DNA of 64,000 bases from Coleofasciculus sp. B1-GNL1-01 (lineage in GTDB: Bacteria > Cyanobacteriota > Cyanobacteriia > Cyanobacteriales > Coleofasciculaceae): the NCBI GenBank assembly GCA_040220235.1, contig JAVJTO010000017.1; one strand, given 5' to 3'. Positions within the stretch are counted from its first letter, which is position 1; every line of letters begins with the position of its first letter. Below the pieces are notes generated by a model. That model was not told the DNA's origin. It saw only the letters and a list, made by a program, of their open reading frames with translations, and made no database searches. A program made the position numbers and the translations under genes. Of this stretch, positions 40,761-60,947 are shown in pieces.

Positions 40761-41218
40761 ATTGATGCACGCTGACGCTCTGTGCAAAAATTATGACACG
40801 AAAGGCAAAATCCCCATTTTTGAAAAAAATCTGTTATGATAGCACGACAGAAAAAGCTCCAGAGGCTATCTGGAGCTGTTTTGAACCCGTGAATGTAGAT
40901 GAACCCGTGAATTAAGATTCAGTCGAAAGAGAAATTGTAATACATGTTGGACGAGATTGGCTACACATAAGCAGCCAATCTTTTACTTTTTTGGAAGCAT
41001 TTTGGGTTGAGGGCGGCTGGGGAAGCAATGTAGAGACGTGCCATGGCACGTCTGGAAGCTGGGGAAGATGGGGGAGATGGGGAAGGGATTTCCTAATCAA
41101 CAAAGGACGAATGACAAATGACAAATGACGAACATTTCTGTTAATTTTTCGTAACCTATTAGTGACCCCAAATATTTTATAAAGCTACACTTAAATTATA
41201 CGGTTAAGAAAAAAAGTT

Positions 41219-43814: not shown

Positions 43815-43920
43815 TAAGCTGTTCGGCATTTAAACCATAATGTCAAGAATTGCGAGATCCTTGCCGTAGTGCGAGCATCTTGCTCGCTACTAATACCCAA
43901 TTTAAATGCATTACAGCTTA
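43815..43920 (+). mobile_element. MITE family A copy 3
   Basis: TAAGCTGTTCGGCATTTAAA...TTTAAATGCATTACAGCTTA. Confidence 0.88.
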
Positions 43921-44279: not shown

Positions 44280-46991
44280 GTGGGAAATATGGCACAAAAA
44301 ACTCATCCGTTGCTGGTACAGGCATCGGAAAGTGAGGAAGCTGGAGAGGTAGAGTCCAGGGGAATACGGGAGATGTTGGGCAGATTGAGCCGCAAAAGTT
44401 GTTCAAAGCTGGCAGGATACACCAGAGTAGGCAGTGTAGCGCTCACCAGTTGTGTCTGGCTGGCTTGGGGTAGCAGCACTGTTGCCCAGATTATCCCCGA
44501 TGAAGCCTGGGGAGACGAACAATCGGTTCGTACCCCTAATGCTCCACTCCTTGACGGAACTCTAGCTGATTTTCTGATTGAGGCGGGAGCGACTCGTGGC
44601 GCGAACCGATTCCACAGTTTTGAACAATTTGATATTGGGGAAGGACAAAGTGTCTATTTTGATTCTCCCCAAGGCATTGAAAACATTTTTAGTCGGGTAA
44701 GGGGAAATGACGCTTCGGATATTCTGGGGACATTGGGTGTCAATGGTGGGGCAAATCTGTTTTTGATTAATCCCAATGGGATTATTTTTGGCGAGAGTGC
44801 CAAGCTAGATGTTAACGGTTCGTTTGTCGCAACGACAGCCAATGGTATTCAGTTTGGGGAACAGGGGTTTTTTAGTACCACACAGTTAGAGGCTCCTTCG
44901 CCATTACTGACAGTGAATCCTTCGGCGTTTCTGTTTAATCAAATCACACTAGGGAGAATTGAATCGCGCTCAGTTGCATTTGCCGGATTTACCCCATTAT
45001 TCCCTCTATTGGGATTGAAAGTCCCTGATGGTCAGAGTCTGCTGCTAGTGGGTGGAGATATCCTCATTGATGGACAATTTAACTTTGGAGGATTGGCTGC
45101 AATAGAAGGTCGATTGGAATTAGCCGCCGTTGCGGGTTCAGGAACAGTAGGACTGACTGTTGATGGCGATAGCCTCTCGTTGAATTTTCCCTCAGAAATA
45201 CCGCGAGGGGATATAGCCTTGACCAATGGCGCTTTTGTCACTACGGCGGGTGAAGGTGGGGGTGATATTCAAGTCTGGGGTAAGGAAATTACCCTAACTA
45301 ACTTTTCTCGACTTTTTTCTGGTTCTTTTGGTACAGGTAAGGGCGGAAATATTGTGGTGAATGCCTCCGAAAGAGTGCAAGCTAGTGGTTTGGAAAGTGG
45401 CTTTTTTGCAAACAACTATGCAACCGGAGACGGAGGAGATGTGATAGTTACAACACCTGTGCTACAGCTAAGGGATGGATCTCAGATTGTCACTGCTACT
45501 TTTGCTCAAGGCAATGCGGGCAATATAGTAGTGAATGCCTCGGAGTCGGTAAAAGTCAGTGGCAGCGTTACAGTTGATGGTACTCCAATTTCCAGTGGTC
45601 TGAGAACGGATGCTCGATTGGATGAGGGGAATGGAGGAGATATAACGATTAACACCCCTGTACTTGAGATGAAAGACGGCGCTGTAATTGCTAGTAGCAG
45701 TTCCCGTGACAGCACAGGTGATGGAGGGGATATAAAAGTATTTGCCTCAGAGTCGGTGCAACTGATGGGCGAGAGCCGTTTAACATCCCAAACAGCAGGG
45801 GAAGGCGATGCGGGTAATCTGAGGATTGATACGCCCTTACTGATGGTGCAAAATCAGGCAGAAATTACAGCAGATACCATTAGGAGGGGAAAGGCGGGAA
45901 TTATAGAAATTAACGCCGCTCAAGTGCAACTCGATGGTGGCGGAATTATTGCAAGTGGTACGTTTGGCGAGGGGGATGCTGGAGACATTTTATTGCAGGT
46001 GGAAGACAGTTTAACCATCTCTGGAGATGGCAGTGGAGTGCTGGCTGAGACAGGAGAAAACTCCAGTGGCAATGGCGGCAGTATCATGATTGATTCGAGA
46101 ACAGTAGTGGTTCGGGATAGAGGGCAAATCACTGTTGAAAGTGAAGGTATTGGAACAGGAGGAAATATTAGCCTTGAAGCCGATTCTCTTATCCTGGATA
46201 CTAATGCTGGTCTTTTGGCAGACACTGATGCTAACACAGGTGGTAATATTGTGCTTACTCTTGATGACCTGTTATTGTTGCGACGTGACAGTCGCATCTC
46301 GACAAATGCTGGTAAGGATGAAGAAAGGGGAAATGGCGGCAACATTATAATTGAAGCTGTTTTCATCGTTGCTGTTCCTAATGAAAACAGCGATATTACT
46401 GCCAACGCTTTTGAAGGACAGGGGGGTAACGTTACTATCACGACTCAAGGTTTGTTTAATCTAGTCATTCGCAGCCGCGAAGAGCTAGAAGCTTTACTGG
46501 GTACGAAGGAGCCTAGTGAATTAGATCCCATGAACTTGCAATCTAATGATGTTACTGCCATTTCACAAACGTCTCCTGAACTGAGTCGTATTCCTATCCT
46601 AATTTTGTTAGAACTAGACCCGTCTCAGGGACTGGTAGAGTTACCCGCAGAACTTGTAGACGTGACGCGGCTGGTTGAACAAAATCTTTGTGCTGCTGCA
46701 CAGGGAAGTGAATTTATCGTAACTGGACGTGGCGGTTTGCCTACGCCTCCGAATCAGATACTTAATGCTGATGCGGCTTGGGAAGATTGGCGGATAAGTA
46801 CTGTGGAGGAATCAACGGAGATGCAGCAATCTAACCGGAACAGTCGCCAAGACGTTACAGGAAATAAGCCAAATAAATTTGTCGAAGCTCAAGGTTGGTT
46901 TAAAGATGCCAATGGTACAATTATTCTTACGACAGAACCAACAGTTGTGACCCCTCACGCAACGGGTTCGCCATCGTTCCCCTGTCAATAG
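44280..46991 (+). CDS. Filamentous haemagglutinin-like (TpsA) exoprotein
   Basis: Signal peptide ending STVA-QIIPD; FHSF, NIFSRV and LINPNGIIFG TPS motifs; GxGGNI beta-helix repeats; C-terminal C...FIVTGRGGLP...EAQGW...C. Confidence 0.9.
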   Translation: MGNMAQKTHPLLVQASESEEAGEVESRGIREMLGRLSRKSCSKLAGYTRVGSVALTSCVWLAWGSSTVAQIIPDEAWGDEQSVRTPNAPLLDGTLADFLIEAGATRGANRFHSFEQFDIGEGQSVYFDSPQGIENIFSRVRGNDASDILGTLGVNGGANLFLINPNGIIFGESAKLDVNGSFVATTANGIQFGEQGFFSTTQLEAPSPLLTVNPSAFLFNQITLGRIESRSVAFAGFTPLFPLLGLKVPDGQSLLLVGGDILIDGQFNFGGLAAIEGRLELAAVAGSGTVGLTVDGDSLSLNFPSEIPRGDIALTNGAFVTTAGEGGGDIQVWGKEITLTNFSRLFSGSFGTGKGGNIVVNASERVQASGLESGFFANNYATGDGGDVIVTTPVLQLRDGSQIVTATFAQGNAGNIVVNASESVKVSGSVTVDGTPISSGLRTDARLDEGNGGDITINTPVLEMKDGAVIASSSSRDSTGDGGDIKVFASESVQLMGESRLTSQTAGEGDAGNLRIDTPLLMVQNQAEITADTIRRGKAGIIEINAAQVQLDGGGIIASGTFGEGDAGDILLQVEDSLTISGDGSGVLAETGENSSGNGGSIMIDSRTVVVRDRGQITVESEGIGTGGNISLEADSLILDTNAGLLADTDANTGGNIVLTLDDLLLLRRDSRISTNAGKDEERGNGGNIIIEAVFIVAVPNENSDITANAFEGQGGNVTITTQGLFNLVIRSREELEALLGTKEPSELDPMNLQSNDVTAISQTSPELSRIPILILLELDPSQGLVELPAELVDVTRLVEQNLCAAAQGSEFIVTGRGGLPTPPNQILNADAAWEDWRISTVEESTEMQQSNRNSRQDVTGNKPNKFVEAQGWFKDANGTIILTTEPTVVTPHATGSPSFPCQ

Positions 46992-47396
46992 TTAAATGGT
47001 TCGTGATACCCAATCCGCCTTTGTAACCTCCCTTTATACCTTGAGTCTTTTTGCCTGTTGCCTGTTGTCTAATTTTAACCGTTAACTTGACTTTTGTCCG
47101 ACTATTTATCAATTGAAAGGGGTTGGAGTTTTGGTGCATCTTGCTTCCTAAAATGTAGGAAGCTTTTCAAGATGGAAGCGGGTAGGATATCTGCACCGCT
47201 ATACAAGGTGCGTTACGCTCCGCTAACGCACCCTACAATTGCCTGAGGTGTTTGTCGTAAGCGCTGAAGCGCTTGTGGCACGCTTTGTGCCTACTACGAA
47301 CGAACATCAATATAGAAGGTTTGATGATATGAAATATCCAGTATCCTTACATGGAAATAAAATATCAAATGTCGGTGTTCCTCGGACGTTTAATGG

Positions 47397-50213
47397 GTGA
47401 GCCAAATGGGTAAATTTACGCCTTTCTTGAATCGCGCGATCGCTCAGGTTTGTAGTCAGCGCTTTAGCGCTTATGGCACTCAAGTGCCTACTAAGAACGG
47501 CGCGATCGCTTCAAGGTTTATAGTCAGCGCTTCAGCGCTTATGGCACTCAAGTGCCTACTACGAACACGAACGGCGCGATCGCTCCTCTTGGCTCTGGTG
47601 GGGTTAAGCTTAAGTCTGGGTATCCATATAGTACCCCAGGTACGGGCAGAACTCCCTGTCGCCACGGACAATCTAGCCTTAGTACAAGTGGGTAAAAATC
47701 ATTACAATGCTGGACAGTTTGCCGCAGGTATACAGGTTTTGCAACAAGCAGCACAGGGGTACGCCGAAACTGGGAATCCCCTCCAGCAAGCCCAAGTCTT
47801 AAGCCTGCTGTCATTAACCTATCAGAAACTGGGACAATGGCAAGCGGCTGAACAAACGATTCAAACCAGTTTATCGTTACTCGACACTGTACCGCAGGTG
47901 AATCCAATTGTTCGCGCTCAAGTATTAAATGCTCAAGGGCGTCTCCAATTAGCCACAGGTAACGCTGAAGCCGCATTAGCGACCTGGGAAGAGGCAGAAA
48001 CCTTTTATCAGCAAGCCGATGATCCTGTGGGTGCGATTGGCAGCAAAATTAATCAAGCCGAGGCAATGCAATCCCTGGGATTCTATCGGCGCACGGCACA
48101 GCTTTATCTGCGGCTGGAACAAGCCCTTTTCGCGTTAGACGATTCACCTGTTAAAGCAGCAGGCTTGCAAAATTTTGGCAATCTTTTGCGACAAGGGGGA
48201 GATTTAGAAAAGTCTCAGGATATGCTCACCCAAAGTTTGGCGTTAACTCGAACCTTAGCCTTATCCGAAAAAGAGAGTCAGATATTATTGAGTTTAGCCA
48301 ATACAGAGCGAACCTTAGCCCAACGCGCCCAAGTGTTTCAGGAACCCGCCGCCAAAGACTATACCCAAGCTGCCTTGACTTACTATCAACAGGCGGCGAT
48401 GAAATCCACGATTCCTATAACCCGCATTCAAGCACAACTTAATCAATTGAGTTTAGTGATCGAGACTGAATCCCTGTCACCGGATCAAGGATTATTATCC
48501 TCAATCGCAGCCGGATTATCAGATTTATCGGCTAGTCGTGCTTCTGTCTATGCCCATGTTAATTTTGCTGAAAGTTTGCTCAAAATGTCCGATTTAATGG
48601 TACAGAAGCAAAGCTCTGATGATATAGTGGCAATCCTAAATACAGCGATTCAACAGGCTGAACGTTTAGCAGACCAACGGGCGATATCTTATAGTTTAGG
48701 TACTTTAGGTAAGTTCTATGAAAAAACCCAAGACTGGACAAATGCCAAAACTGTGACTGAAAAAGCACTTCTGATTGCTCAACAGATGAACGCCCCCGAT
48801 ATCGCCTATCAATGGCAATGGCAAATGGGGCGATTACTGCAAGCACAAAGCCAAGATAATTCTCAAAATCTACCTGTTAATCCAGACGCGATTACTTATT
48901 ATACTCAAGCTGTTAAGACGTTAAACAATTTACGTGGTGATTTAGTCGCCCTCAATCCCGAAATTCAGTTCTCGTTCCGAGAAGCAGTAGAACCCGTTTA
49001 TCGTCAATTTGTTGATTTACTTCTGGGTTCTCCCACTCCCAGCAAAGCTAATCTGAGCCAAGCCCGTAATATCATGGAAGCCCTACAACTGGCTGAACTG
49101 GATAACTTCTTTCGCGATGCTTGTGCCGCACCAGCAGCCGTGGATATTGATAACGTCGATCCCCAAGCCGCGATTGTTTATCCAATTATATTACCTAATC
49201 ACTTGGATGTAATTCTCAAATTACCTGGACAAGATAACCTACGTCACTATGCTCATCAAGGTATCTCAGAAGCTCAAGTTGATCAAGCTGTGGAACAATT
49301 GCGCCTGGATTTAACCAAGCGCAGTACGAGCATCAGTGAAATTAAACAGGATGCGGCACAACTTTACGATTGGTTAATTCGTCCCTTTGAAGCTGATTTA
49401 GATCCCGCCAACTCAGATAACCCCACCGTTAAAACCTTAGTATTTGTCCTCGATGGTTCCTTACGCAATGTTCCGCCCTCTACTCTCTATGACGGAGAAA
49501 AGTATTTAATTGAGCGATATGCAGTGGCGTTAACGCCCGGTTTACAACTCCTAGAACCCAAACCCCTCAGCCGCGAGAATTTCCGAGGGTTGATTGCGGG
49601 AACGACGAATGCACCTAGCTTTGAGCAAGAGGGATTTTCTACTCTAGACAATGTAGCTAATGAGTTAGCCGGAATCCAACAGCAAATCACCCTGAATCAA
49701 ATTCTAGAAAATCAGGACTTTGTTAAAGAAAATATCCGCAATCAGATTAATATGGCATCCTTTAATCTGGTACACATTGCCACTCACGGCAAATTTAGTT
49801 CTAATCCTCAACAAACCTTTCTCTTAGACTGGAGTGGGCGGATTAATGTTCAGGATTTAGATAGTTTATTACGCACCAATGAACCCAATCATACCAGCGC
49901 TATTGAATTACTGGTTTTGAGTGCTTGCGAAACCGCAACTGGGGATAAGCGTGCCGCATTAGGATTAGCCGGAATTGCCGTGCGAGCAGGTGCCCGCAGC
50001 ACATTGGCGACATTGTGGCAAGTTAATGATGCATCCACTGCCGAATTTATGCAACGGTTTTATCAACAGTTAAAAGAGCCTCAACTGAGTAAAGCTGAAG
50101 CTCTGCGGCAAACTCAAATTGCGTTTTTAACCGAGTATCCAGATAATCCCGACAAAGATTACCTACGCCCCTATCACTGGGCACCGTTTATTCTGATTGG
50201 GAATTGGTTATAA
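47397..50213 (+). CDS. Exported TPR + CHAT (caspase-like) protease; start uncertain (47397, 47406 or 47541)
   Basis: TPRs; catalytic HIATHG and VLSACETA motifs; ATLWQVND and HWAPFILIGNWL; h-region LLLALVGLSLSLG..VRA. Confidence 0.92.
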   Translation: MSQMGKFTPFLNRAIAQVCSQRFSAYGTQVPTKNGAIASRFIVSASALMALKCLLRTRTARSLLLALVGLSLSLGIHIVPQVRAELPVATDNLALVQVGKNHYNAGQFAAGIQVLQQAAQGYAETGNPLQQAQVLSLLSLTYQKLGQWQAAEQTIQTSLSLLDTVPQVNPIVRAQVLNAQGRLQLATGNAEAALATWEEAETFYQQADDPVGAIGSKINQAEAMQSLGFYRRTAQLYLRLEQALFALDDSPVKAAGLQNFGNLLRQGGDLEKSQDMLTQSLALTRTLALSEKESQILLSLANTERTLAQRAQVFQEPAAKDYTQAALTYYQQAAMKSTIPITRIQAQLNQLSLVIETESLSPDQGLLSSIAAGLSDLSASRASVYAHVNFAESLLKMSDLMVQKQSSDDIVAILNTAIQQAERLADQRAISYSLGTLGKFYEKTQDWTNAKTVTEKALLIAQQMNAPDIAYQWQWQMGRLLQAQSQDNSQNLPVNPDAITYYTQAVKTLNNLRGDLVALNPEIQFSFREAVEPVYRQFVDLLLGSPTPSKANLSQARNIMEALQLAELDNFFRDACAAPAAVDIDNVDPQAAIVYPIILPNHLDVILKLPGQDNLRHYAHQGISEAQVDQAVEQLRLDLTKRSTSISEIKQDAAQLYDWLIRPFEADLDPANSDNPTVKTLVFVLDGSLRNVPPSTLYDGEKYLIERYAVALTPGLQLLEPKPLSRENFRGLIAGTTNAPSFEQEGFSTLDNVANELAGIQQQITLNQILENQDFVKENIRNQINMASFNLVHIATHGKFSSNPQQTFLLDWSGRINVQDLDSLLRTNEPNHTSAIELLVLSACETATGDKRAALGLAGIAVRAGARSTLATLWQVNDASTAEFMQRFYQQLKEPQLSKAEALRQTQIAFLTEYPDNPDKDYLRPYHWAPFILIGNWL
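47436..47583 (+). repeat. Two tandem REP-like units bounded by three HIP1 sites inside the CHAT 5' region
   Basis: HIP1 at 47436, 47502 and 47576; units GTTT.TAGTCAGCGCTT.AGCGCTTATGGCACTCAAGTGCCTACTA; related copies at ~47250 and ~27582. Confidence 0.85.
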
Positions 50214-51030
50214 CATCGCTCGGTATCACACTACCAACAATGGGTTCTTGCTCAATTTCTTTTAACCCAATGCGTTCATCCCCTAAGAGTTCTAGCCAGA
50301 TACTTTTCAATGTCGAATCGTTAGGGTATTCCAAGCGTAATTGAGCTAATTCCGTGAGCATATCATACCAAACGTCATGACGGGCGTAAGCAGCAACCCG
50401 TTCTAGGGGATTTTGAGTTTGACTTAATTCCGCCTCAAGTTCAGGAAATTGGGGAACTCGTCGCACAAACCCGGTTAGCGATGCTGGTGCCAGTCGAGTT
50501 GCTGATTGCGGGGATTGTGTTGAACGGGGACAACTTATTTCAAAATACCAGCGATAGGTTTTACCTATTTCTAACGGCTTTTCTGTCTTGGGAATCGTGA
50601 CACTGACAATTCCTGGTGTGGCTGGCAGTTTAAAGGTGGTACGATAAATATCATCTTCCCCATGTTGAATAGAAAATTCTCCAGAGGATACTTTGTCTGA
50701 ACCGTAGGGGACATAAACCCAAAAGGTGGGATATTCACTCACGGTTAACTGGAAATTCTTACCACCCGCCATGCGAGTGAGGAAAAGATCTCCTTCGGTG
50801 TATTCGCAGTCACCACGAGTACCGGTGCCATTGTCAGTTGTAGGAGTACCATTACCATCATCACCGGGTAAATTGGGCAAAAGAGAGGGAATCGATATTG
50901 GCTCAAAGATAGTATTCGACGACTCAACCTGTGCCATGGCTGGGGAAAGATGAGTCATTAGACTAAGGATAATACCTATTGCTAGTACGGGTTGGCATCG
51001 AGGGATAAGCCTAAATTGGAAAATGTTCAT
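50188..51030 (-). CDS. DUF928-domain exported protein
   Basis: Signal peptide (PAMA-Q); GTGTRGDC, PTFWVYVPY, LEIGKTYRWYF and YARHDVWYD motifs. Confidence 0.88.
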   Translation of the reverse strand: MNIFQFRLIPRCQPVLAIGIILSLMTHLSPAMAQVESSNTIFEPISIPSLLPNLPGDDGNGTPTTDNGTGTRGDCEYTEGDLFLTRMAGGKNFQLTVSEYPTFWVYVPYGSDKVSSGEFSIQHGEDDIYRTTFKLPATPGIVSVTIPKTEKPLEIGKTYRWYFEISCPRSTQSPQSATRLAPASLTGFVRRVPQFPELEAELSQTQNPLERVAAYARHDVWYDMLTELAQLRLEYPNDSTLKSIWLELLGDERIGLKEIEQEPIVGSVIPSDVITNSQSE

Positions 51031-51050
51031 GTCTCTGTTTGTAATGATAC

Positions 51051-51153
51051 TAAGCTGTTCGGCATTTAAACTTTAATATCAATAACGGCGAAAGCCTTGT
51101 AGTGCGAGCATCTTGCTCGCTACTAATACCCAATTTAAATGCATGACAGCTTA
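51051..51153 (+). mobile_element. MITE family A copy 4, 20 bp upstream of the DUF928 start codon
   Basis: TAAGCTGTTCGGCATTTAAA...TTTAAATGCATGACAGCTTA. Confidence 0.88.
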
Positions 51154-51311
51154 GAGGATAGAACGTAGTTTTATTATCGGTAGGGCAGTTATTTGAGTAG
51201 GAAAGCCGGGAATAATTTAAAGGGCTTTCCTGGAACTTCTCACCCAGACAATATTTTTGCCGCAATATTTAATTATAGATGCACCCGTCACGTTTTCTGT
51301 GATAATTTCCC

Positions 51312-51761
51312 CTATTCTAAATACACTAAATAGTTACTCCAAATATGATATAAGGGAAGATGGGGAGTTGAACCCCAAAATAAATTGGGTTCAAACAATT
51401 GATAAAGATGAAGATACATCGGGATGACAATATCTGTGATTGGAGCTTCCTCTTCTAGTTCATTTTGATTTTCCTGATTGAAAAATGTGAGAATGCTATT
51501 TCTGAAATTGTCTGATTCTGGAAGCCAATTTAGTCCGTTATTAAGAAAGTGGCGACGAGGGGGGGGTTCCGGATCTGGAATAGAAAAACAAGGAAAACCA
51601 AAATTACAGAGAAAGGGAAAAGATTGTGAGAAAGAAGATTGTGAGAAAGAAGATTCAGAGCGAGAAGAGCGACTAAAACTATTTAGCAAAAATCCTGAAT
51701 ACGCCGGATATAACAGTAAAGAAGTATCAGGAGTGTATGAATTCCAAATGCTAAGTCTCAT
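51312..51761 (-). CDS. Hypothetical Ser/Phe/Pro-rich ORFan
   Basis: 149 codons with an AAGGAG Shine-Dalgarno upstream; no recognised domain. Confidence 0.5.
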   Translation of the reverse strand: MRLSIWNSYTPDTSLLLYPAYSGFLLNSFSRSSRSESSFSQSSFSQSFPFLCNFGFPCFSIPDPEPPPRRHFLNNGLNWLPESDNFRNSILTFFNQENQNELEEEAPITDIVIPMYLHLYQLFEPNLFWGSTPHLPLYHIWSNYLVYLE

Positions 51762-51866
51762 CTGTGTACCAATTCTCCTTTTTTAGTAGTTAGGAAGGGG
51801 TTGCTGAGTGAATTTGTTGGCTTTGCCTTCCCTTTTCGGTTTTCATTATCGATGACAATTACCCCA

Positions 51867-51930
51867 AATAAATCGGGAAAATTCAGGACTTGAAAATTCA
51901 GGAAAATTCAGGGTGTTCGGGAAAGTTGAG
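51867..51930. promoter_or_regulatory. Cluster of 10-bp direct repeats GAAAATTCAG (putative operator)
   Basis: Exact copies at 51877, 51892 and 51902; degenerate at 51867 and 51921. Confidence 0.5.
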
Positions 51931-52393
51931 GTTGATTTTCGTAAATATTAGGGATAATTTTATCGTACTTGTATCCTGATAAGTATTAAATTTTACAACT
52001 CAATGTAACGATTAGCTTAATGGTGAGAAACCCGATCGCTATCCTACCCCACAATCCTGAAACTCCTTTACCCTAAAAAGGTTGAGCCATTCTCATCAAC
52101 TAGCTGAACCCTAATTGTATCAAATATTACCTTTTAAATTCTGTCAGTGCTTCCCTGATAATTGTATCAATATGTAAAAAATATCGTCAGTTTGCTATGG
52201 TTAAACTAGAAACTCTCTATGACTCTATTCGGGCTGCCAGAGTCTCGCCAACGGCATTCCCAGCCAAAATGTCGAAAATGTAGAGACGTGGTGTCACCTT
52301 TCTACAGGCGGCAAAACCGAGCTATTGGATAGTGATGATTTAACGATTACACAGCCAGTATTACCCGACAAAATTGCCGTTCAAATCCATCGG

Positions 52394-52414
52394 AATAATT
52401 CAGGAAAATTCAGG
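52394..52414. promoter_or_regulatory. Second direct-repeat pair AATAATTCAG-GAAAATTCAG upstream of the HTH-AAA gene
   Basis: AATTCAGGAAAATTCAGG identical to the sequence at 51895-51912. Confidence 0.5.
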
Positions 52415-52514
52415 TTTATTGGCTTGTGTAATTTTCGCAAAATCTCACTTCATCTCAGGGTGTATTCGTATTTACTAAGATAAGATAAATAGGTTAGTTT
52501 GAGCATCCATACCA

Positions 52515-53852
52515 ATGACATTTGATATCGATGACGCCATTCAAATGGCGAACCAAGCCATATCCCGCAGCGCTCACCGCAGCTTAACTGATGTAGAAGT
52601 CATTGTCCTCAAAGGAGCATGGCAACGTCAGGACTATGATGAAATTGCTGCTAAACATCAATATTCCACCAGCTATATTAGTCAAGATGTTGCCCCGAAG
52701 CTGTGGAGACTCTTGACCAAAGCTTTAGGAGAGAAAGTGAAAAAAAATAACTTTAAGCAAGTATTGGAACGACATTGGAAACAGCAGCACTTTTCCGATG
52801 CTTCTTTGAATTCAAGTTGGCAATCTTCAACCCATTGTCTTTCTCAGCAAAAACCGCCCAAATCATTCGCCCCTGACTATTATGTAGAACGTTCTCCCCT
52901 GGAAACCACCTGTTATCAAACCCTCTTACAAACGGGAGCATTAGTGCGGGTTAAAGCGCCCAGTTTAATGGGCAAAACTTTACTCGTGAATCGGGTATTA
53001 GCTGAATTGGCAACTCAAGGCTACCGCACCGCAAGTTTAAGCTTTAAGCTAGCTGATAGTAAGATTCATTTCACTCATCTGGATAAATTCTTGCGCTGGT
53101 TTTGTATTAATCTCTCGCGTGAACTCGGTTTACCCAATGCCTTAGATGAGTATTGGGATGAAGAGGATATGGGGTCTAAAGTCAGTTGTACTACTTACTT
53201 TGAAGACTATCTCTTAGCTTCAGGGAATAATCCCATCGCTTTGTGCTTAGATGATGTCCATTTACTCTTCGCCTATCCCGAAATTTATGAAGACTTTTTT
53301 GGACTCCTGCGTTCCTGGTATGAAAAAGCTAGAAGTCGCAAACGGTGGCAACTATTGCGCTTAATTATCGTCCATTCCACTGATGTTTACATTCGCCTCA
53401 ATATTAATCAATCACCATTTAATGTTGGCTTACCCATTGAACTTGCTGACTTTACCTTAGAGCAGATACAAGAGTTTGCCCAAAACTATGGACTCAATCC
53501 CGATTTGAGTTACCTTCAACCCTTAATCAACATGATCGGAGGACACCCTTATTTAGTCGAACGCGCCTTTACGCACTTAAAAAATGACCCCAACATGACC
53601 CTTGAACAACTCTTAGCCACTGCGCCAACGGACGCAGGAATTTATGCTAGTCATTTGCGAGAAAATTGGTTGTATTTACAGTCTCATCCTCAACTAGCAG
53701 AGGCGTTTAAAACTGTTGTTACGACTAAAACGCCTGTACAACTTGAACCCATGCAAGCCTATCAACTTCATAGTATAGGTTTAGTCAAACGGTCGGGAAA
53801 TAAAGTCGAACCCCGCTGTGATTTATATCGTCAATATTTCTGCAATCATTAA
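52515..53852 (+). CDS. N-terminal HTH + AAA_35 (STAND-like) NTPase
   Basis: [48 protein letters not shown] and GGHPYL motifs. Confidence 0.85.
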
Positions 53853-53866
53853 GGAGCGAATGCCTA

Positions 53867-56767
53867 ATGGGAGCGGATGAACTCAACAGGGCTGATCGGT
53901 ATCATCTTGGTGGAAGCTTACCCGCTGATGCACCAACTTATGTGGTTAGAAAAGCGGATTCTGAACTCTATAACGGTTTATTAGCCGGGGAATATTGCTA
54001 TGTCCTCAATTCTCGGCAAATGGGAAAATCTTCCCTGCGAATCCGTACCATGTGCAAACTCAAATCCCAAGGAATTGCCTGTGCTGAAATTGAACTGAAT
54101 GGTATTGGTAGTCAACAGATTAGCGCCCAGCAATGGTACGGTGGAATTATCCAAGAATTAATTAGTGGGTTCGATTTACAAGTGAATCGACGGAACTGGT
54201 TACGGGAGTATGAGGATCTCTCCCCGGTGCAGCGTTTGGGCAAATTCCTGGAAACAGTATTGCTGGCACAGATTCCCCAAAACATCGTTATTTTTATCGA
54301 TGAAATTGATAGTGTTTTGGGATTGAGCTTTCCGGCTGATGATTTTTTTGCCTTGATTCGTAACTGTTATGACAAACGGGCAACTAAATTTGACTACAAA
54401 CGCCTTACCTTTGCCTTATTGGGAGTCGCCACCCCATCGGATTTAATTCAAGACAAACATGCGACACCTTTTAATATTGGTCGGGCAATTGAATTGAAGG
54501 GGTTTCAAGTTCACGAAAGCGCGGCTTTAATTCAAGGGTTAGTCGGACGAGTTAGCTGTCCCCAAGCTGTATTAAGAGAGGTATTGTACTGGACAGGAGG
54601 TCAACCGTTTCTCACCCAGAAATTCTGTTGGCTTCTGGTGAATTATTGTCACCAACAAGAAAATGGACTCTGCACAATTCCTGAGAATGAAGCCCCCCGA
54701 TGGGTGGAACAGTTTGTGCAAACGCAGATCATTGAAAATTGGGAAGCCCAAGATGAACCGGAACATCTGAGAACGATTCGCGATCGCCTGTTGGGGCAAC
54801 CTCACTGTTGTCAACAATCACTCCAGATTTATCGAATCATTTTAGAACAGGGAAGTGTTGAGGCGAAAAATAGTCCTGAACATATCGAATTGCGGTTATC
54901 GGGGTTAGTGAATAAACACCAGGGAAACTTAGTGGTTTATAACCCAATCTATCAATCGGTGTTTAATCTGGATTGGATTGAAAAACATTGTCCTAAGGAA
55001 CGGATTCTTGCCATCGTTTTTACCGATGTGGAATCATTTTCGACAAAAATGGCAGCCGATGAGAAGCATACCTTGGCACTTCTTCAAAGGGATTTTCAGC
55101 TAATCCGGGGATGCTGTGAGCAGTTTTCTGGCGAGATACTCAAAGGGTTGGGAGATGGGTGGTTGATCCGCTTTGATAGTGCAGAAAACGCCGTCGATTG
55201 CGCGATCGCGATCCAACAAGCCATCAAAACCGCTGCGGCGAATTTACCCAAGCGTGACATTCTCCGCCATCGCATTGGTATCCACCTGGGGGAAGTATTT
55301 TTCTTGCAAAATGATTTCGGTGTTTCACCCTCCCGTAATTTTATCAACACCTATCAGGATGATGTGATGGGTAATGTGGTGAATGTGGCGGCGCGGCTGC
55401 AAACTGAAGCACCAGCAGGCGGGATTTGTATTTCCCAAACCGTCTATGAAGCCGTTCAGGATCATCTGAATGGAGTGAAGGATCAGCAACAGCTTCAGAT
55501 TACGAAAGCCGGAGAACGCCTGTTAAAGAATATTCCCCGACCTATCCCCGTTTATATTATTACCCTTGATCCATACCTGCAACCCTGGTGGTGGAAAATA
55601 CTCATCCTCTTGATCACAGCCGCGATCGCGACAGGTTTGGTTGTAGGAGTGCGATCGCGCGGTGGGTTGGAGTCTTGGGAACTTCAAGTTTTTGATCACC
55701 TGATGCGGTTACAACCCCCTGAAGAACCCGATGAACGACTCTTAATTGTGGAGATTACCGAAAAAGACGTTCAGGCTCAACCCGCTGAAGAACGAGTGGG
55801 TGCGTCTCTCTCAGATCGCGCCTTGGCTGAACTCCTGGCTAAATTAGAGTCGTATCAACCCCAAACCATTGGCTTAGACATTTATCGCGATCGCCCAGTA
55901 GAGGACAACTATCCAGAGTTAGCCCAAGCCATGGAAACGAGCGATCGCTTGTTTACTATTTGTCATTACGGTAATCCTGGCGTTGTACCGCCACCGGAAG
56001 TGTCAGGGGAACGACAAGGGTTTAATAATGTTGTCCTCGATACCGATGATATTCTGCGTCGTCATCTTCTCGCGGTTTCTGACGCCTCGCCCTGTCAAAA
56101 TCAATACGCTTTTAGTATACAGGTTGCTAGTCATTACCTAGCCGCCCAAGGAATTAAGCCACACCTGAATTCCGACGGGTATCTTCAGCTTGGCTCAACC
56201 GTATTTAAAACCTTAGATACAAACCCTGGCGGCTACTCGACGATCAATTCCAGTGGTCACCAAATCTTACTCAATTACCGCGCCACGAATCAGATTGCTG
56301 AGAAAATTACGCTCACAGACGTTCTAAATGGTCAACTCAATCCTGAACAGGTAAAAAATCGTATTGTTCTAATTGGCACCACGGCTCCCAGTTTTAACGA
56401 TCATCGTTGGTTCACTCCCTATAGTAAAGGACAAGGAACCGTTCAAACCATGACCGGAATAGAAATTCAAGCGCAGATGGTCAGTCAAATTCTCAGTGCT
56501 GTTTTAGATCAGCGACCCCTGATCTGGTGGTGGTCAGAACCCATTGAGATCCTGTGGATTTGCGGCTGGTCTTTAATCGGCGGACTACTCGCCCAAAATT
56601 CTCGTTCACCACGAGGGTTTCTGATCCGAGGCGGAGTCGCGATCGCTATTTTATACGGAAGCGGCTGGGTGCTTTTCCTGCAAGGGGGTTGGATACCCCT
56701 AGTTCCCGCCGCGATCGCTTTGGTGATGAGTGGAGGTATGCTGATAGTTTTCTCTCAGTTTAAATAA
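53867..56767 (+). CDS. AAA_35 NTPase - class III adenylate cyclase - TM - CHASE2 - 3TM receptor
   Basis: [29 protein letters not shown]; cyclase [32 protein letters not shown]2 [24 protein letters not shown]. Confidence 0.9.
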
Positions 56768-56792
56768 CATCTCTGCGCCTCAATCATCCATT

Positions 56793-58736
56793 TTAATTTT
56801 GCCCCCCTACTTCTGACTGATCACTGTTTTCGGATGGTGACGAAGAACCCGCCGGACATTGAATAGTATTCTCCACCACTTCCGGTTGACTGGGAGGGGT
56901 TTTTGACGGTTGATTCGTTTGACAAATTTGATCACTCGTTGAGTCTCCAGTGACAAACACCGCTCCGGTATAACTCCTTAAATCCGGTTTTTTGGCTTGC
57001 GCCGTAACCAGCGCCTGCTGTTGATTCGCGGAGACGATCTGATACTGGTAAGATTCAGGTTGCGATTGCAAGGGAATTGCCAACTCCTCGAAGCTAGAGG
57101 CAAATTGTCCATGTTGTAAATAGAAAATTTGTTGGCTTTTATTCACCGAATTAATAAACGATTTTGCCTCTAATTCTCCCGCTAAATCAATCGGCGGCAA
57201 GGGTGAAGGTGTCAGGACAGTGTGAGTGGGTAAGATTGGTTGAGGTTCATTGGGAGATAGAGTAGATTTTGCCTGTTGATTCTCTGGGGTGGACTCGCTA
57301 TCCTTTGCGGTGTCTGGGGATGGAGAAGAAACCTGATTAGAAAACGGACGCTGTTGCCAATACACATAGAAAGGAGTCACCGCTACTCCAACAATCAGCA
57401 AGCCAACGACTGCTATCCATTTGGCTTTTTTCCCTTTCAGCAGATTGAGCCGATTCGACTGAATCGGTTTTTTGGCTGGAGAGAAGGATTGGGAGGGATT
57501 GGACTTGGACGCAACTGTTCCCCGGGGACTCGTCTGCGATTCATCCTTGATAATCTGCGTTGGTGCGTCCGGAGCATAATCCCATTGCGCCGTAGCATCT
57601 TGGTTATCAAGATTTGTCTCTGATGGGCGATTGTTGACGGCTGAATTTCGAGGATGTTTGCGCGATGTCGCTGCCGAATTTTCTCCGGTTCCGGTCAACG
57701 ATTGGGCAGAATTTCTCATGCCCGACTGACCCGTTGCTCCGCTAGTTTTCCTTAACATGCTAGTGGGCATATCGGTCGATTTTGACTCTGGGGTTTTCCC
57801 CCGTTGCCCAAGGGTTCCTTTGCCTGAAGGGAATGTAATGATACCCGAATTGTAATGACTTAAATTATTCAGATCAGCTAGAACTGCTGTGACGGAACGG
57901 TAACGCTGACGGAAGTCATAGCGCACCATTTTATCAATTACATAACCAAGTCCTGGGCTGATATTGAGTTGATTGCGCCAGCTAAATTCACTGGTTTCAG
58001 GGTCTTGGGGCAATTGTTTTGGGTGTGATCCGGTCAATGCTTGGAGACCAATCATTCCCACCGCATAGATATCACTGCTAAAGCGAGGTTTTCCGGCTAA
58101 TTGTTCGTTGGGCATATACCCGGCTGAACCAATGGCAATCGTCAGCGCCGTTGGTTCATGGGTTTCCACGGGTTGAGTACTGATTTGTTTAACCGCGCCA
58201 AAATCAATTAAAACAATTTTATTATCGGATTTGCGTTTGATGATATTGGCGGGTTTAAGATCCCGGTGAATCACTTGATGCTGGTGAACAAATTCCAGAA
58301 TCTTTAAAATCTCTTGTAATAGCCGAATAACAATTACTTCTTTTAATGGCTTACCCTGGGGTAAGAGTTTAGATAGACTATCACCTTCGATAAATTCTTG
58401 GACTAAATAAAATTCTTGATTTTCTTCAAAGTGAGCAAACAGTCGTGGAATTTGCTCATGGTTTCCTAATTTGTACAGAACCTCAGCTTCGGTATTGAAT
58501 AAACGTCTTGCTGTCTGCAACATCGCCGAATCAGTGGTTTTTGGCTTCAGTTGCTTGACAACACACCAAGGATGACCTGGTAATTGTTGATCTGCTGCGA
58601 GAAAGGTGGTTCCAAACCCACCAGCCCCAAGCTGACGAATAACGCGGTAGCGCCCACTAAGTATAATATCGGTCATGAGAGTTTTATCTAGGTTGTCAGC
58701 GAAAGCCATCTGATCCAACGAGACTACAAATTGCAC
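56793..58736 (-). CDS. Ser/Thr protein kinase - TM - type IV pilin-like (Pilin_GH) domain; start may be 58709 or 58676
   Basis: Intact GAGGFG, VVK, HRDLKPAN and DFG motifs; C-terminal EAKSFINSVNKSQQIFYLQHGQFASSFEEL...SYTGAVF..C...CP. Confidence 0.88.
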   Translation of the reverse strand: MQFVVSLDQMAFADNLDKTLMTDIILSGRYRVIRQLGAGGFGTTFLAADQQLPGHPWCVVKQLKPKTTDSAMLQTARRLFNTEAEVLYKLGNHEQIPRLFAHFEENQEFYLVQEFIEGDSLSKLLPQGKPLKEVIVIRLLQEILKILEFVHQHQVIHRDLKPANIIKRKSDNKIVLIDFGAVKQISTQPVETHEPTALTIAIGSAGYMPNEQLAGKPRFSSDIYAVGMIGLQALTGSHPKQLPQDPETSEFSWRNQLNISPGLGYVIDKMVRYDFRQRYRSVTAVLADLNNLSHYNSGIITFPSGKGTLGQRGKTPESKSTDMPTSMLRKTSGATGQSGMRNSAQSLTGTGENSAATSRKHPRNSAVNNRPSETNLDNQDATAQWDYAPDAPTQIIKDESQTSPRGTVASKSNPSQSFSPAKKPIQSNRLNLLKGKKAKWIAVVGLLIVGVAVTPFYVYWQQRPFSNQVSSPSPDTAKDSESTPENQQAKSTLSPNEPQPILPTHTVLTPSPLPPIDLAGELEAKSFINSVNKSQQIFYLQHGQFASSFEELAIPLQSQPESYQYQIVSANQQQALVTAQAKKPDLRSYTGAVFVTGDSTSDQICQTNQPSKTPPSQPEVVENTIQCPAGSSSPSENSDQSEVGGQN

Positions 58737-59096: not shown

Positions 59097-59906
59097 TTAT
59101 CCAGAGTAACGGCTAGAGTCAGTCGAAGATTGCTGCTGATAGGCTAGATACACGGCTTCCAGAAAGACATTTGCCGTAACCTTTTGAGGCACATTTTCCA
59201 GGTCAATGATGTCTTTCACCTGACTTGCCAGTTGTCGGCTTAACGCCGTGCGGGATTGTGGTGTCATCCCTCCACGCCGTTGCAAATACTCTCGAATGAC
59301 AGCAAAATCATCGGGTAATAAGCGAGATAAATCAGCTTGAGTCTGGAGTTGATTTGCCAGAGTTGTGGCTGATTCCGATACCGAAACGTTGGCGGCGGTA
59401 AGGGGTTGTTCTTCCTGAATCACTACGGTTCCAGCAACCCAATCTCCAATCCGCTTTTCGCGTTTTCCTAAAGCGATGAAAAATACTCCCAGAAAAAATA
59501 AATCATCAACGGGTCGTAGTAAAGCCCGTAACGTGGCTTGCTGGAGTCTCGCAGGTCTGCCATCATCGCGAATGACGCGAATTTTCACATAGCGCTTTCC
59601 TGGCGTTTGCCCTTGCCATAAGGTTTCAAAGAAAACAAAGTAACCAACATAGATAAAAAATGAAATTAAGAGTTGGATAGAAACCAGCCAAAGCTCTAAT
59701 TGAGTTTCACTGCCGATTACATCTTCAATAACATCAATAAATTGAATGGATAAAAATACCCACGTAATTAGGAAAACAATTAGAATGAATCCCCAGACAA
59801 TATAGTCAATTAACAGGGCATAGGCTCGATTACCGATTCCAGCAAGCGTGAATTCCAGTTCAACACTTTCTGGGGTTTGCAGCGTAATTCGGTTAAAAAA
59901 TCGCAT
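59097..59906 (-). CDS. RDD-family membrane protein
   Basis: TPESVELEFTLAGIGNRAYALLID, GQTPGK and KRIGDWVAGT motifs. Confidence 0.9.
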   Translation of the reverse strand: MRFFNRITLQTPESVELEFTLAGIGNRAYALLIDYIVWGFILIVFLITWVFLSIQFIDVIEDVIGSETQLELWLVSIQLLISFFIYVGYFVFFETLWQGQTPGKRYVKIRVIRDDGRPARLQQATLRALLRPVDDLFFLGVFFIALGKREKRIGDWVAGTVVIQEEQPLTAANVSVSESATTLANQLQTQADLSRLLPDDFAVIREYLQRRGGMTPQSRTALSRQLASQVKDIIDLENVPQKVTANVFLEAVYLAYQQQSSTDSSRYSG

Positions 59907-59926
59907 GGCAGATAGAATTCATAAGT

Positions 59927-60865
59927 TTAGCGTAGCTGCATTCCCAAACCTTCTCGACGACTGCGGAGGTCATAGTAAACCACAGCTTTAATGGCTTGCC
60001 AGAAGGGTAAGAGCAATACACCACTTACTAATCCCAAAACATATCCCACAATCAATGAAAGTATTTGAAACCCCACTGATGTTGGATCTGCCGCTAAAAC
60101 CCTCAATAAAACCCCCTGAAGTATACTGACAATGATTTGAACAATAATATAGATAGGGATTGAAATCAAAAAGGCAACAGTTAACGTCAAGAAAACTCTC
60201 CCCACATGATTTTTAGTCAAACTCCAACTGCGTTGGATAGTTTTACTAGCCGTTATATTTTCTTCTATAGCCAAGGGAACCTCATACATAAACAACCTTG
60301 TGAAAATTCGGACAATTAAACTTAATGCTATACCGAATACTATAATCCCTATTAATCCTAAAACGACTAATATTGCCATATTATCCTGTACAGAAACCGC
60401 CAAAAATCCACCCAGAATACCCAGAACTAAAGCAATGAGATAGAACCCAATCCATATACCAAAACTTAAAAGTAAAAACAGGAGATAAGCCCGCAAAAAA
60501 ATCCAGAGTTTCGGACTGACTTGACGGCGAGCATCTCTAGCGCTTTCGGGTTGATTGGTTAATTCACAAAAGGCTAATCGTGAGATAAGTGCCGAGTTGA
60601 CCATATATTTAGCCATGCCATAAAAAAACAGGACTAAACCCGCCGGAATCAGTAGTCCTAAAATGGCTGGATTTGCCTGCTCATAAATTAACACCAGAGG
60701 AATAGGAATTAGAACAACAAATGGCAATAACGCCCACAACGTTGCTCGGAACGCGATACCAAAATAGACTTTCAGGTGATCGCGATACAGCCGCAAGCCA
60801 GCGCTAACCACATTACCCACACTCAGGGGTCCTATGGATTGGCGGGGGTTGGGATTCTGGGACAT
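59927..60865 (-). CDS. Polytopic membrane protein (GPDPase-membrane/DUF975-like)
   Basis: PLSVGNVVS, RSWSLTK and YYDLRSRREGL motifs; multiple TM helices. Confidence 0.8.
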   Translation of the reverse strand: MSQNPNPRQSIGPLSVGNVVSAGLRLYRDHLKVYFGIAFRATLWALLPFVVLIPIPLVLIYEQANPAILGLLIPAGLVLFFYGMAKYMVNSALISRLAFCELTNQPESARDARRQVSPKLWIFLRAYLLFLLLSFGIWIGFYLIALVLGILGGFLAVSVQDNMAILVVLGLIGIIVFGIALSLIVRIFTRLFMYEVPLAIEENITASKTIQRSWSLTKNHVGRVFLTLTVAFLISIPIYIIVQIIVSILQGVLLRVLAADPTSVGFQILSLIVGYVLGLVSGVLLLPFWQAIKAVVYYDLRSRREGLGMQLR

Positions 60866-60947
60866 TGGCTAAACATCTCCTGATCGGTGAAATGCTGAAT
60901 TTAAAGCTATCTTAAGCTAAGTTAGGCAGAATCTTCAGTGAAATTTC

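Follow-up and report, generated by a model that had tools for sequence, protein, structure and literature searches.

A candidate envelope-signalling cassette of Coleofasciculus, in which a two-partner-secretion protein, a CHAT protease, DUF928 and a CHASE2 receptor may feed a paired-NTPase transcription switch

A 64,000-nt stretch of contig JAVJTO010000017.1 from the cyanobacterium Coleofasciculus sp. B1-GNL1-01 (assembly GCA_040220235.1), hereafter the window, contains five genes that, from comparisons within and between genomes, very probably work as one system. They encode a TpsA-type exoprotein, a TPR-CHAT protease, a DUF928 protein, an HTH-AAA_35 NTPase and an AAA_35-cyclase-CHASE2 receptor. 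The cassette probably passes a cell-surface signal to gene control, and gives a lead on what CHASE2 sensors detect. We take the locus to be one of 11 paralogous envelope-signalling cassettes of this genome, in the version with a paired-NTPase transcription switch. A preliminary description of the region had listed six recognisable genes in a contiguous block, and profile annotation found all six. They are given below with the other features of the locus, numbered over the whole stretch, with strands relative to the strand shown.

44280..46991, plus strand: TpsA-type exoprotein, 903 aa (PF05860, E 2e-51; TIGR01901)
47397..50213, plus strand: TPR-CHAT caspase-like protease, predicted exported, 938 aa counted from the first GTG (PF12770, E 4e-56)
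50188..51030, minus strand: DUF928 protein, predicted exported, 280 aa (PF06051, E 2e-50)
51312..51761, minus strand: ORFan, hypervariable, 149 aa (frame open in 5 Coleofasciculus genomes)
51865..51912, plus strand: distal array of a 10-bp direct repeat, candidate operator (repeat families D4/D5)
52382..52420, plus strand: proximal array of the same 10-bp repeat, candidate operator, about 100-130 nt upstream of HTH-AAA_35
52515..53852, plus strand: HTH-AAA_35, type a NTPase, predicted cytoplasmic, 445 aa (PF14516, E 1e-138)
53867..56767, plus strand: receptor, AAA_35b-cyclase-CHASE2, 966 aa (PF05226, E 1e-71; AAA_35, E 2e-25; Guanylate_cyc, E 2e-12)
56793..58736, minus strand: membrane Ser/Thr kinase with C-terminal Pilin_GH (domain profiles)

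The DUF928 gene is present in the block as described, with the correction that it lies on the minus strand (50188-51030). It is convergent on the CHAT gene, with a 26-nt overlap, and divergent from the HTH-AAA_35 gene; there are therefore at least three transcription units, and the block is contiguous yet not one operon. The receptor gene does start 14 bp behind the HTH-AAA_35 gene, and its product is 97% identical to a protein of Coleofasciculus chthonoplastes PCC 7420. The reported lack of a TpsB/FhaC gene nearby also holds: no ShlB/TpsB gene was found on the contig; the rest of the genome has eight ShlB genes, and for four of these a TPS gene is no more than 10 kb away. Scans of the locus for sigma-70 promoters and terminators gave results no better than chance, and metatranscriptome contigs from 4 runs, which cover parts of the locus, were uninformative on transcription or strand.

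That the genes belong together was apparent in this genome, which has 30 matches to DUF928, 26 to CHASE2, 47 to TPS, 72 to CHAT and 42 to AAA_35. Within 10 kb of the 30 DUF928 matches, CHASE2 was present in 19 cases (random mean 1.8), CHAT in 20 (4.5) and TPS in 15 (2.9), counts that were reached in 0/1000 shuffles. Eleven loci hold all of TpsA, CHAT, DUF928 and CHASE2. When GTDB genomes were scanned with a protein related to the receptor, 78 loci were obtained, and these were annotated by profiles built from this genome. Among the 41 loci with an AAA_35b-CHASE2 receptor, AAA_35a was found at 37 (fused to an HTH at 34), DUF928 at 32, a TpsA with the C-terminal module called TpsC below at 27 and a large CHAT at 26, compared to 26, 0, 1 and 1 for AAA_35a, DUF928, TpsC and CHAT at the 37 control loci where AAA_35b has other partners. 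All five genes occur together at 21 of the 41 loci, in at least four gene orders; some missing genes reflect loci cut at contig or flank ends, and many loci are close kin, so that they do not amount to 41 independent events. The 21 full loci come from Microseira, Fischerella, Anabaena, Calothrix, Nostoc, Dulcicalothrix, Amazonocrinis and two metagenome-assembled genomes, and the linkage persists through rearrangement in about nine genus-level groups. The neighbourhood counts and the comparison of 41 with 37 loci thus agree on co-occurrence beyond chance. At the same 41 loci, kinase-Pilin_GH was present four times, a cyclase six times and TpsB never. The kinase had been proposed as a possible member; as its four occurrences are all in Coleofasciculus, it is probably a syntenic neighbour and not part of the system.

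Distance matrices of the 21 complete loci split the cassette into a cytoplasmic block and an envelope block. The correlation between AAA_35a and AAA_35b was 0.96 (partial 0.86), compared to 0.82 between AAA_35b and CHASE2, which are on the same polypeptide; within the envelope block, CHASE2, DUF928 and CHAT reached 0.94-0.95 mutually, and TPR-TpsC 0.92. The cytoplasmic block also appears to be exchanged as a unit. At four congeneric loci compared with this one, CHASE2 is 89-93% and the kinase 97-99% identical, whereas the HTH is 61-64% (three loci), AAA_35a 72-75% and AAA_35b 69-70% identical, and the cyclase is absent. AAA_35a is co-oriented with the receptor at 38/38 loci, this one included, and directly upstream at 24. 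Proteins in which b and a are fused are encoded in five Nostocales-family genomes, and in a quick tree they nest among the CHASE2-fused b domains. Natural fusions, co-orientation and block exchange all back the AAA_35-AAA_35 pairing that had been proposed, and we hold it highly probable that a and b form a cognate unit.

STAND NTPases have a P-loop with Walker A and B motifs, followed by a helical domain with a G-x-P motif and a winged helix. The a and b proteins carry the G-x-P motif and a C-terminal GL motif, and the Walker A lysine (Lys154 in HTH-AAA_35) is kept in both types (48 a and 50 b sequences). Walker B reads D-E in 50/50 receptor b domains and D-D or D-N in nearly all of the 33/48 a domains where the pattern matched, a difference that should not be taken as proof of inactivity. 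Leipe et al. 2004 reportedly described the MNS clade of STAND NTPases, with the Npun2340/2341 family (also named in PMC8195603), as paired in cyanobacteria; a and b may resemble this clade (Walker A/B, G-x-P, GL motif), and the literature searched has nothing that links MNS-clade NTPases with CHASE2 or TpsA. In the PDB, no STAND structure was matched by a profile of 31 AAA_35a proteins. The N-terminal 105 residues of HTH-AAA_35 had no match in a Pfam profile search; in the ESM Atlas they resembled HTH_VMAP-M9 (PF26355; score 0.89, 210 shared features), which is a lead only. Together with the candidate operator repeats described below, this likeness supports the earlier suggestion of a DNA-binding partner. 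Four proteins (P0019, P0020, P0106, P0116) have AAA_35b domains in tandem, two or three of them, followed by CHASE2 or a histidine kinase, a hint that this domain may act as an oligomer.

The receptor is built of AAA_35b (residues 1-372), a cyclase (about 380-560), a transmembrane segment (577-595), a periplasmic CHASE2 domain and hydrophobic C-terminal helices after 918. The class III cyclase residues D387, K426, D430, D499, N506 and R510, which we take to be the metal-binding, adenine-specifying and transition-state residues, are all intact here; they are kept in 16, 20, 21, 21, 20 and 17 of 23 cyclase copies, respectively. The preliminary description had routed output through cyclic AMP (cAMP). 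This part was not upheld as the core output, the cyclase being present in only 22/120 best receptor homologues and 6/41 receptor loci, with catalytic residues lost in several copies. A quick AAA_35b tree, for which 3 of 87 rows were removed because of excess gaps, gave 4 changes of cyclase state, at least 2 of them forced by strong branches. We therefore read cAMP as a probable optional side branch in this lineage. The cytoplasmic parts of 17 scanned CHASE2 receptors were cyclases, SpoIIE phosphatase, TIR, caspase-like CHAT, AAA_35, or unassigned.

TpsA consists of a TPS secretion domain (PF05860, 175.6 bits against a cut-off of 33.5; TIGR01901 match; NPNG at 164), a repetitive Gly/Asn-rich passenger and a C-terminal module that we call TpsC, with TGRGG at 815 and the cysteines Cys804 and Cys902. 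Exactly two cysteines are found in TpsC of 48/49 relatives, and the arginine is conserved in 89%. Compared with the closest congener, the passenger is only 68% identical, against 97% for TpsC, 100% for the TPR of the protease and 89% for DUF928. Co-divergence was measured among 15 paralogous TpsA + CHAT cassettes of this one genome, where no species tree can confound the result. TPR divergence followed that of TpsC (r 0.84) and not that of the TPS domain (0.07), and TpsC was barely correlated with its own TPS domain (0.16), although a narrow spread of TPS-domain divergence might lower the correlations with that domain. In 39 pairs that include one of the three cassettes in which the TpsA N-terminus is nearer to CHAT, the values were 0.87 for TPR-TpsC and 0.03 for TPR-TPS; physical closeness is therefore not the cause. 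In addition, TpsC was present in 0/19 TpsA-CHAT fusion proteins, which retain the His-Cys dyad, as would be expected if TpsC docking stands in for a covalent linkage. This suggests that TpsC is a docking site for the protease TPR, whether or not it doubles as a substrate, and we consider the binding of TpsC to TPR-CHAT likely.

AAA_35 pairs are connected with two-partner secretion in a second way at six other loci (L108, L110, L111, L113-L115). Here genes for short TPS-domain proteins of 560-640 aa, which have a Pro-rich tail and lack TpsC, are co-oriented with AAA_35b-WD40 genes and lie directly upstream of them; in 5/6 an AAA_35a gene comes before.

The dyad attributed to CHAT is indeed intact: His797 and Cys844 are present and invariant in 43 cassette-size CHATs. 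The likely true start is ATG 47541. Two 53-nt copies of an interspersed repeat (47446-47566) overlap the 5' end of the gene, and this ATG falls inside the second copy. Export signals were judged from hydropathy and A-x-A-type cleavage sites only. On this basis the signal-peptide-like N-termini attributed to three proteins are clear for CHAT and DUF928 and weaker for TpsA, where a weak hydrophobic region (h-region) precedes Ala69/Gln70 (12-residue mean 1.74; no 19-residue segment above 1.5). An N-terminal h-region was found in 41/43 cassette-size CHATs and 83/85 DUF928 proteins. The claim that CHAT is extracytoplasmic is accordingly retained as a prediction. The model of the CHAT domain (mean predicted local distance difference test, pLDDT, 83) has structural matches to Csx29 (Foldseek E 6e-13, TM 0.65), DdvA (PDB 8rot, E 3e-7), gingipain R and separase, and as modelled it is a caspase-haemoglobinase-type fold with a His-Cys dyad. 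A single-sequence PDB search with CHAT returned hydrolase matches only, which were spurious, and the best result of a profile search was SAVED-CHAT at E 0.67.

Two acidic residues of CHAT, E756 (41 residues before the His) and D878 (34 after the Cys), are invariant in the cassette CHATs, and their arrangement resembles MALT1 spacing. Human separase cuts after Arg in unstructured substrates by means of an S1 Asp (PMC10317155), and MALT1 and gingipain R also use acidic S1 residues for Arg (PMC4357240). Arg specificity of the cassette CHAT is thus plausible.

The putative substrate, DUF928, has a flexible Gly-rich N-terminus followed by a beta-sandwich and a helical bundle, in a low-confidence model made without an alignment (pLDDT 51; generic matches, best Z 7.4). 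Arg72 is invariant (85/85) and sits in a Gly-rich, low-confidence stretch directly before Cys75 (conserved in 98%), which probably pairs with Cys167 (96%). One paralogue (L008:4033-5379; 449 aa) has nine tandem repeats of about 22 aa, each with a Gly-Gly-x-Arg motif, which is what a peptide precursor would show. Cleavage of DUF928 by CHAT at Arg72 is a proposal to which we give slightly less than an even chance. No structural relative of DUF928 was found at Z of at least 8, PDB sequence search and the ESM Atlas gave nothing firm, profile comparison with CHASE2 revealed no relationship, and an insensitive search for longer DUF928 proteins found no fusion to CHAT, CHASE2 or TpsA. A 631-aa HTH-NB-ARC-DUF928 protein without signal peptide (P0121, on 3 contigs) is either a natural fusion or a read-through. 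DUF928 was absent from 14 control genomes outside Cyanobacteriota (0/14). It has matches on 24 cyanobacterial plasmids (H1-H24), 11 of which are predicted conjugative or mobilizable, and contig C50 (21698-25765) of this genome has four tandem DUF928 genes, around which a stretch of 6 kb is free of matches to CHASE2, CHAT or TPS.

The divergent region between the DUF928 and HTH genes is 1.5 kb long and contains the two arrays of one 10-bp direct repeat. Both arrays are kept in five aligned congeners, where the intergenic DNA is 78-96% identical. With a motif-free test for tandem repeats (score of at least 0.8), repeats were detected upstream of 14/49 HTH-AAA_35a genes compared to 17/293 unrelated genes; for control, the figures were 2/46 upstream of TpsA and 0/44 upstream of CHAT. 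The repeat type of this locus recurs upstream of the same HTH type in Limnofasciculus, Anabaena azotica and Amazonocrinis. One Nostoc clade, with another HTH type, has another unit, and two CHASE2-coupled paralogues of this genome have a third. HTH identity correlated with repeat-unit similarity (rho 0.80, 0/2000 permutations) among 19 loci chosen for having a repeat. The balance tips slightly in favour of the repeats being the operator of the HTH.

A strict pattern made from the copies of this locus occurs three times in 8.66 Mb. The third copy lies about 125 nt upstream of a gene for an extracytoplasmic function (ECF)-type sigma factor (L149:2529-3221; contig C29:4028-4723), assigned by TIGR02937 at E 4e-11, slightly below the cut-off; no sigma gene is among the open reading frames (ORFs) at 38000-64000 of the window. 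This repeat is kept in 5/5 aligned congeners and was not found upstream of homologues of the sigma gene outside Coleofasciculus. The ECF sigma gene is a possible second target of the HTH. About 3-7 kb from it lie what we take to be sheath and tube genes of a contractile-injection-system-like cluster.

These elements can be assembled into an outside-in chain. TpsA would be exported by a TpsB encoded elsewhere and stay tethered, with its disulfide-bonded TpsC in the periplasm, a placement suggested by family features and the CdrA precedent. TpsC would dock on the TPR of the periplasmic CHAT, as co-divergence and the fusions lacking TpsC lead us to infer, and might thereby couple protease activity to the state of the filament; this control of activity is speculation. 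Activated CHAT would cut DUF928 after the invariant Arg, and CHASE2 would sense the released peptide or the trimmed protein, which is the weakest step. The AAA_35b of the receptor would then recruit its cognate AAA_35a, a pairing well supported by genomics, into what may be a nucleotide-dependent hetero-oligomer. The HTH would bind the 10-bp tandem repeats, its candidate sites, at its own divergent promoter and possibly also at the ECF sigma gene, and the cyclase would add an optional cAMP branch in this lineage. We find the outside-in direction of signalling somewhat more probable than the reverse, and hold the whole chain tentatively, at rather less than even confidence. A more elaborate form of it, a protease-activated receptor pathway, appears unlikely in all its detail. 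It would have a filament antenna whose tail activates CHAT, an Arg-ended DUF928 peptide as the CHASE2 ligand, and a two-subunit STAND-type switch acting on the 10-bp repeats, from which the signal could also pass to an ECF sigma factor. With antenna, peptide and output as exchangeable modules, a cell would have a dozen parallel insulated channels.

Several results weigh against the outside-in chain. E756 and D878 were considered as a cassette-specific sign of Arg cleavage and rejected, as both are common to all CHAT classes; the S1 Asp of separase is 41 residues after the Cys, compared to 34 for D878; and Csx29, which lacks a separase-type S1 Asp, cuts after Leu or Met (PMC9729208). TpsC itself, with its conserved Arg, could be the CHAT substrate. 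At one locus (L052) TpsC is only 51% identical beside a CHAT that is 90% identical, although this locus is cut, its TpsA is inverted and may be a second, non-cognate one. In the 11 full cassettes of this genome, DUF928 co-diverged with CHAT (0.69) and TpsC (0.70; 0/5000 permutations), which favours the chain, whereas CHASE2 gave only 0.43 with DUF928 and 0.54 with CHAT, and its values with TPR (0.24) and TpsC (0.25) were not significant. All the co-divergence correlations, moreover, run among kin, and shared duplication history inflates them; shared ancestry alone would likewise produce some correlation between HTH and repeat. As many as 30/49 HTH-AAA_35 genes have no detectable repeat, many of them of the HTH type of this locus, and in this genome only 2/22 paralogues pass a score of 0.75 (background 7/593, p 0.04), this locus scoring 0.70. 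CHASE2 is present in 279/301 cyanobacterial genomes and Pfam DUF928 in 101/301, all of which, checked by eye, also bear CHASE2. This overlap says little because CHASE2 is nearly universal, and the counts imply that CHASE2 is not generally dependent on DUF928. By score, the 42 AAA_35 matches of this genome fall into 22 of type a and 17 of type b, not counting three fragmentary rows; a short row assigned to a is probably b. Type a is next to type b in 10/22 cases (random 0.8) but near DUF928 in only 3/22 (166/1000 shuffles), and is not significantly near TPS. The pair is thus an output module of general use, and four loci of this genome have it attached to CHASE2.

From this last result one might argue for clustering alone, in that envelope and signalling genes gather in variable regions while the AAA_35 pair functions independently of TpsA and CHAT; AAA_35 pairs mostly serve WD40 and other partners, and gene order and strand vary. 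We find this very improbable, since fusion of AAA_35b to CHASE2 brings DUF928, CHAT and TpsC with it (32, 26 and 27 of 41 loci, versus 0, 1 and 1 of 37), and the linkage outlasts rearrangement across the genus-level groups. A different wiring would be inside-out adhesin release of the kind known from CdrA/CdrB-LapG (LapG has a transglutaminase-like fold, different from CHAT): CHAT would cut TpsA at the TGRGG Arg, above the anchor formed by the two cysteines, and free the filament. DUF928 and CHASE2 would keep the protease back or let it go, and reporting the internal state or setting cassette expression would fall to the AAA_35 pair or the cyclase. The paired cysteines and frequent Arg of TpsC, and the co-divergence of TpsC with TPR and CHAT, suit this scheme, and CdrA is a two-partner cargo that is anchored by a cysteine hook and freed by periplasmic LapG (PMC11898600). 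It nevertheless seems unlikely to us. The domains on most receptors of this genome are of output type (cyclases, SpoIIE phosphatase, TIR, caspase), the HTH partner and the candidate operator point to transcriptional output, the TpsA-CHAT fusions keep the dyad yet lack TpsC, and the TGRGG Arg lies between Cys804 and Cys902, so that a cut product would stay disulfide-linked.

To a similarly small degree we credit the idea that DUF928 is not a substrate. Its Arg loop would be a pseudosubstrate inhibitor of CHAT, in the manner of securin or the gingipain prodomain, or the protein an uncut, tethered CHASE2 ligand, and the cassette would serve quality control of the envelope by monitoring TpsA export or folding and adjusting expression. 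An inhibitor would explain the invariant Arg of the flexible loop no less well than a substrate would, the RgpB prodomain does put an Arg into S1 (PMC4357240), and the candidate operator would be autoregulatory. DUF928 also occurs beside CHASE2 without CHAT or TpsA on contigs C83, C102 and C161 of this genome, and by itself in the four-gene array of contig C50. The nine tandem Arg motifs, however, are easier to read as multiple released peptides, and the fast divergence of the TpsA passenger (68%, against 97-100% for its neighbours, in the closest congener) suggests selection from outside and not a housekeeping role. A last alternative concerns the purpose and is compatible with the wiring of the outside-in chain: the variable filament would detect phage, predators or non-self filaments, and the STAND-like pair would trigger defence or death. 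Paralogous receptors do carry TIR, cytoplasmic caspase-like and paired NTPase outputs, domain types that have been tied to conflict systems (Kaur et al. 2021, PMC8195603); DdvA, a periplasmic TPR-CHAT protein, regulates a defence island (PMC11506125); and the alleles are mosaic and fast-changing, with DUF928 on plasmids. A PADLOC search with the five core proteins, on the other hand, returned generic TPR, cyclase and kinase matches only, none of them system-specific, no toxic effector is fused to this AAA_35 pair, and most receptors end in ordinary cyclases or phosphatases. We regard counter-invader defence or kin recognition as an improbable purpose.

Around the cassette, several features remain to be described. 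The ORFan named in the preliminary description does exist, on the minus strand, but is hypervariable and outside the conserved system. Its frame is open in five congeners (32-43% BLAST identity), upstream of and co-oriented with DUF928; it was found in 4/351 genomes of the order, and its 12 database matches are, where named, all Coleofasciculus. It is a local, very fast-evolving passenger. A plus-strand frame at 51478-51786 was discarded, being broken by stops in all 3 matching congeners. Two copies of about 105 nt (43815-43920 and 51051-51153), with 20-nt inverted ends resembling those of miniature inverted-repeat transposable elements, flank the TpsA-CHAT-DUF928 block and could aid cassette shuffling; related copies are abundant in mat metatranscriptome contigs. 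In the cyclase-less allele, what is presumably a secreted-protease-like gene (L051, L052, L095; 900-1040 aa, subtilase- or metalloprotease-like N-terminus, shared C-terminus) lies divergently upstream of HTH-AAA_35a, in the place of the ORFan and DUF928. At nine other loci (L074, L075, L079, L084-L089) genes that we take to be lanthipeptide-synthetase-, peptidase-ABC-exporter- and HlyD-like are inserted between HTH-AAA_35a and the receptor, and the switch may have its targets among them. The flanking genes showed no link to the cassette; they include those listed next, three genes for membrane proteins with conserved synteny in the genus, and an ORF with WD40 repeats.

38868-40787, minus strand: kinase-like protein with transmembrane segment and TPR
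41219-43654, plus strand: phosphoenolpyruvate synthase
59097-61910 and 61946-63730, minus strand: ORFs

Little has been written on these families together. A cluster of CHASE2, DUF928 and WD40 genes is described in PMC5587647, which cites the acid-stress response of Synechocystis sll1891 and, in the part available, gives no mechanism; DUF928 was found nowhere else in the library of openly available papers that was searched. No paper on a CHAT/CHASE2/filamentous hemagglutinin cassette in cyanobacteria was found by title or abstract, and 'AAA_35' gave unrelated mentions only. CHASE2 ligands were still called unknown in 2023 (PMC10581220), and no solved structural relative of CHASE2 was found. 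The cassette offers candidates both for the source of the ligand (the DUF928 Arg peptide) and for the activator of the protease (TpsC), together with a read-out (the repeat of the divergent promoter). It would give a role to TpsA, CHAT and AAA_35, families that are greatly expanded in mat-forming cyanobacteria (47, 72 and 42 matches here), and would exemplify a membrane receptor wired to transcription through paired NTPases, without a kinase.

Each of the known systems that we compared resembles it in part. The NsrA-CyaD1/CyaD2/CyaK-Clr pathway of Sinorhizobium meliloti also has CHASE2 receptors and a transcriptional output, its CHASE2 cyclases responding to a protein signal at the outer membrane through NsrA (PMC13001267). 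Its output is cAMP-Clr, however, and no TpsA, CHAT or DUF928 is described in the available part of that paper, whereas here the AAA_35 pair with its HTH is the constant output, and the cyclase, placed N-terminal to CHASE2, is an optional part. Pseudomonas aeruginosa CdrA/CdrB-LapG shares the two-partner cargo with a C-terminal Cys pair, and CdrA is cut near its C-terminus (PMC11898600). LapG, in contrast, is controlled by cyclic di-GMP, while the protease here is a CHAT and the receptor has no GGDEF/EAL; that system, as far as the available text goes, is without CHASE2, DUF928 or an NTPase pair. In the DdvA-DdvS system of Myxococcus xanthus, transcription is likewise controlled across the envelope with the help of a periplasmic TPR-CHAT that has a His-Cys dyad (PMC11506125). 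DdvA, however, is a single membrane-anchored anti-sigma factor, while CHAT here is apparently a separate exported protein: the anti-sigma domain and transmembrane segment of the DdvA type are absent, only a signal-type h-region preceding the TPR, and the cassette adds a distinct receptor, a filament and DUF928.

In EACC2-caspase-CHASE2 (Kaur et al. 2021, PMC8195603), CHASE2 is likewise joined to a conflict-type cytoplasmic module, and four CHAT-CHASE2 fusions of this genome are probably of that type; the N-terminus of the present receptor is instead AAA_35 plus cyclase, and CHAT is a separate gene with a predicted signal peptide. The nSTAND2 systems of the same paper have two adjacent paralogous STAND NTPases, predicted there to form a hetero-multimer. 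The second of these has eroded motifs, and the effectors are GT4/HEPN, whereas here both Walker A lysines are kept and the partner is an HTH. TpsA, DUF928 and an exported CHAT are not mentioned in the available parts of the EACC2 and nSTAND2 descriptions, nor are CHASE, Npun or MNS in the main text of Kaur et al. 2020. As far as gene content tells, the cassette lacks a defining feature of each of these systems. What it adds is the co-divergence of TpsC with the TPR, the co-evolution and block exchange of the AAA_35 pair, and a repeat that tracks the HTH type. We conclude that the cassette is a real envelope-signalling system, made up of known parts, which is widespread and has apparently escaped study.

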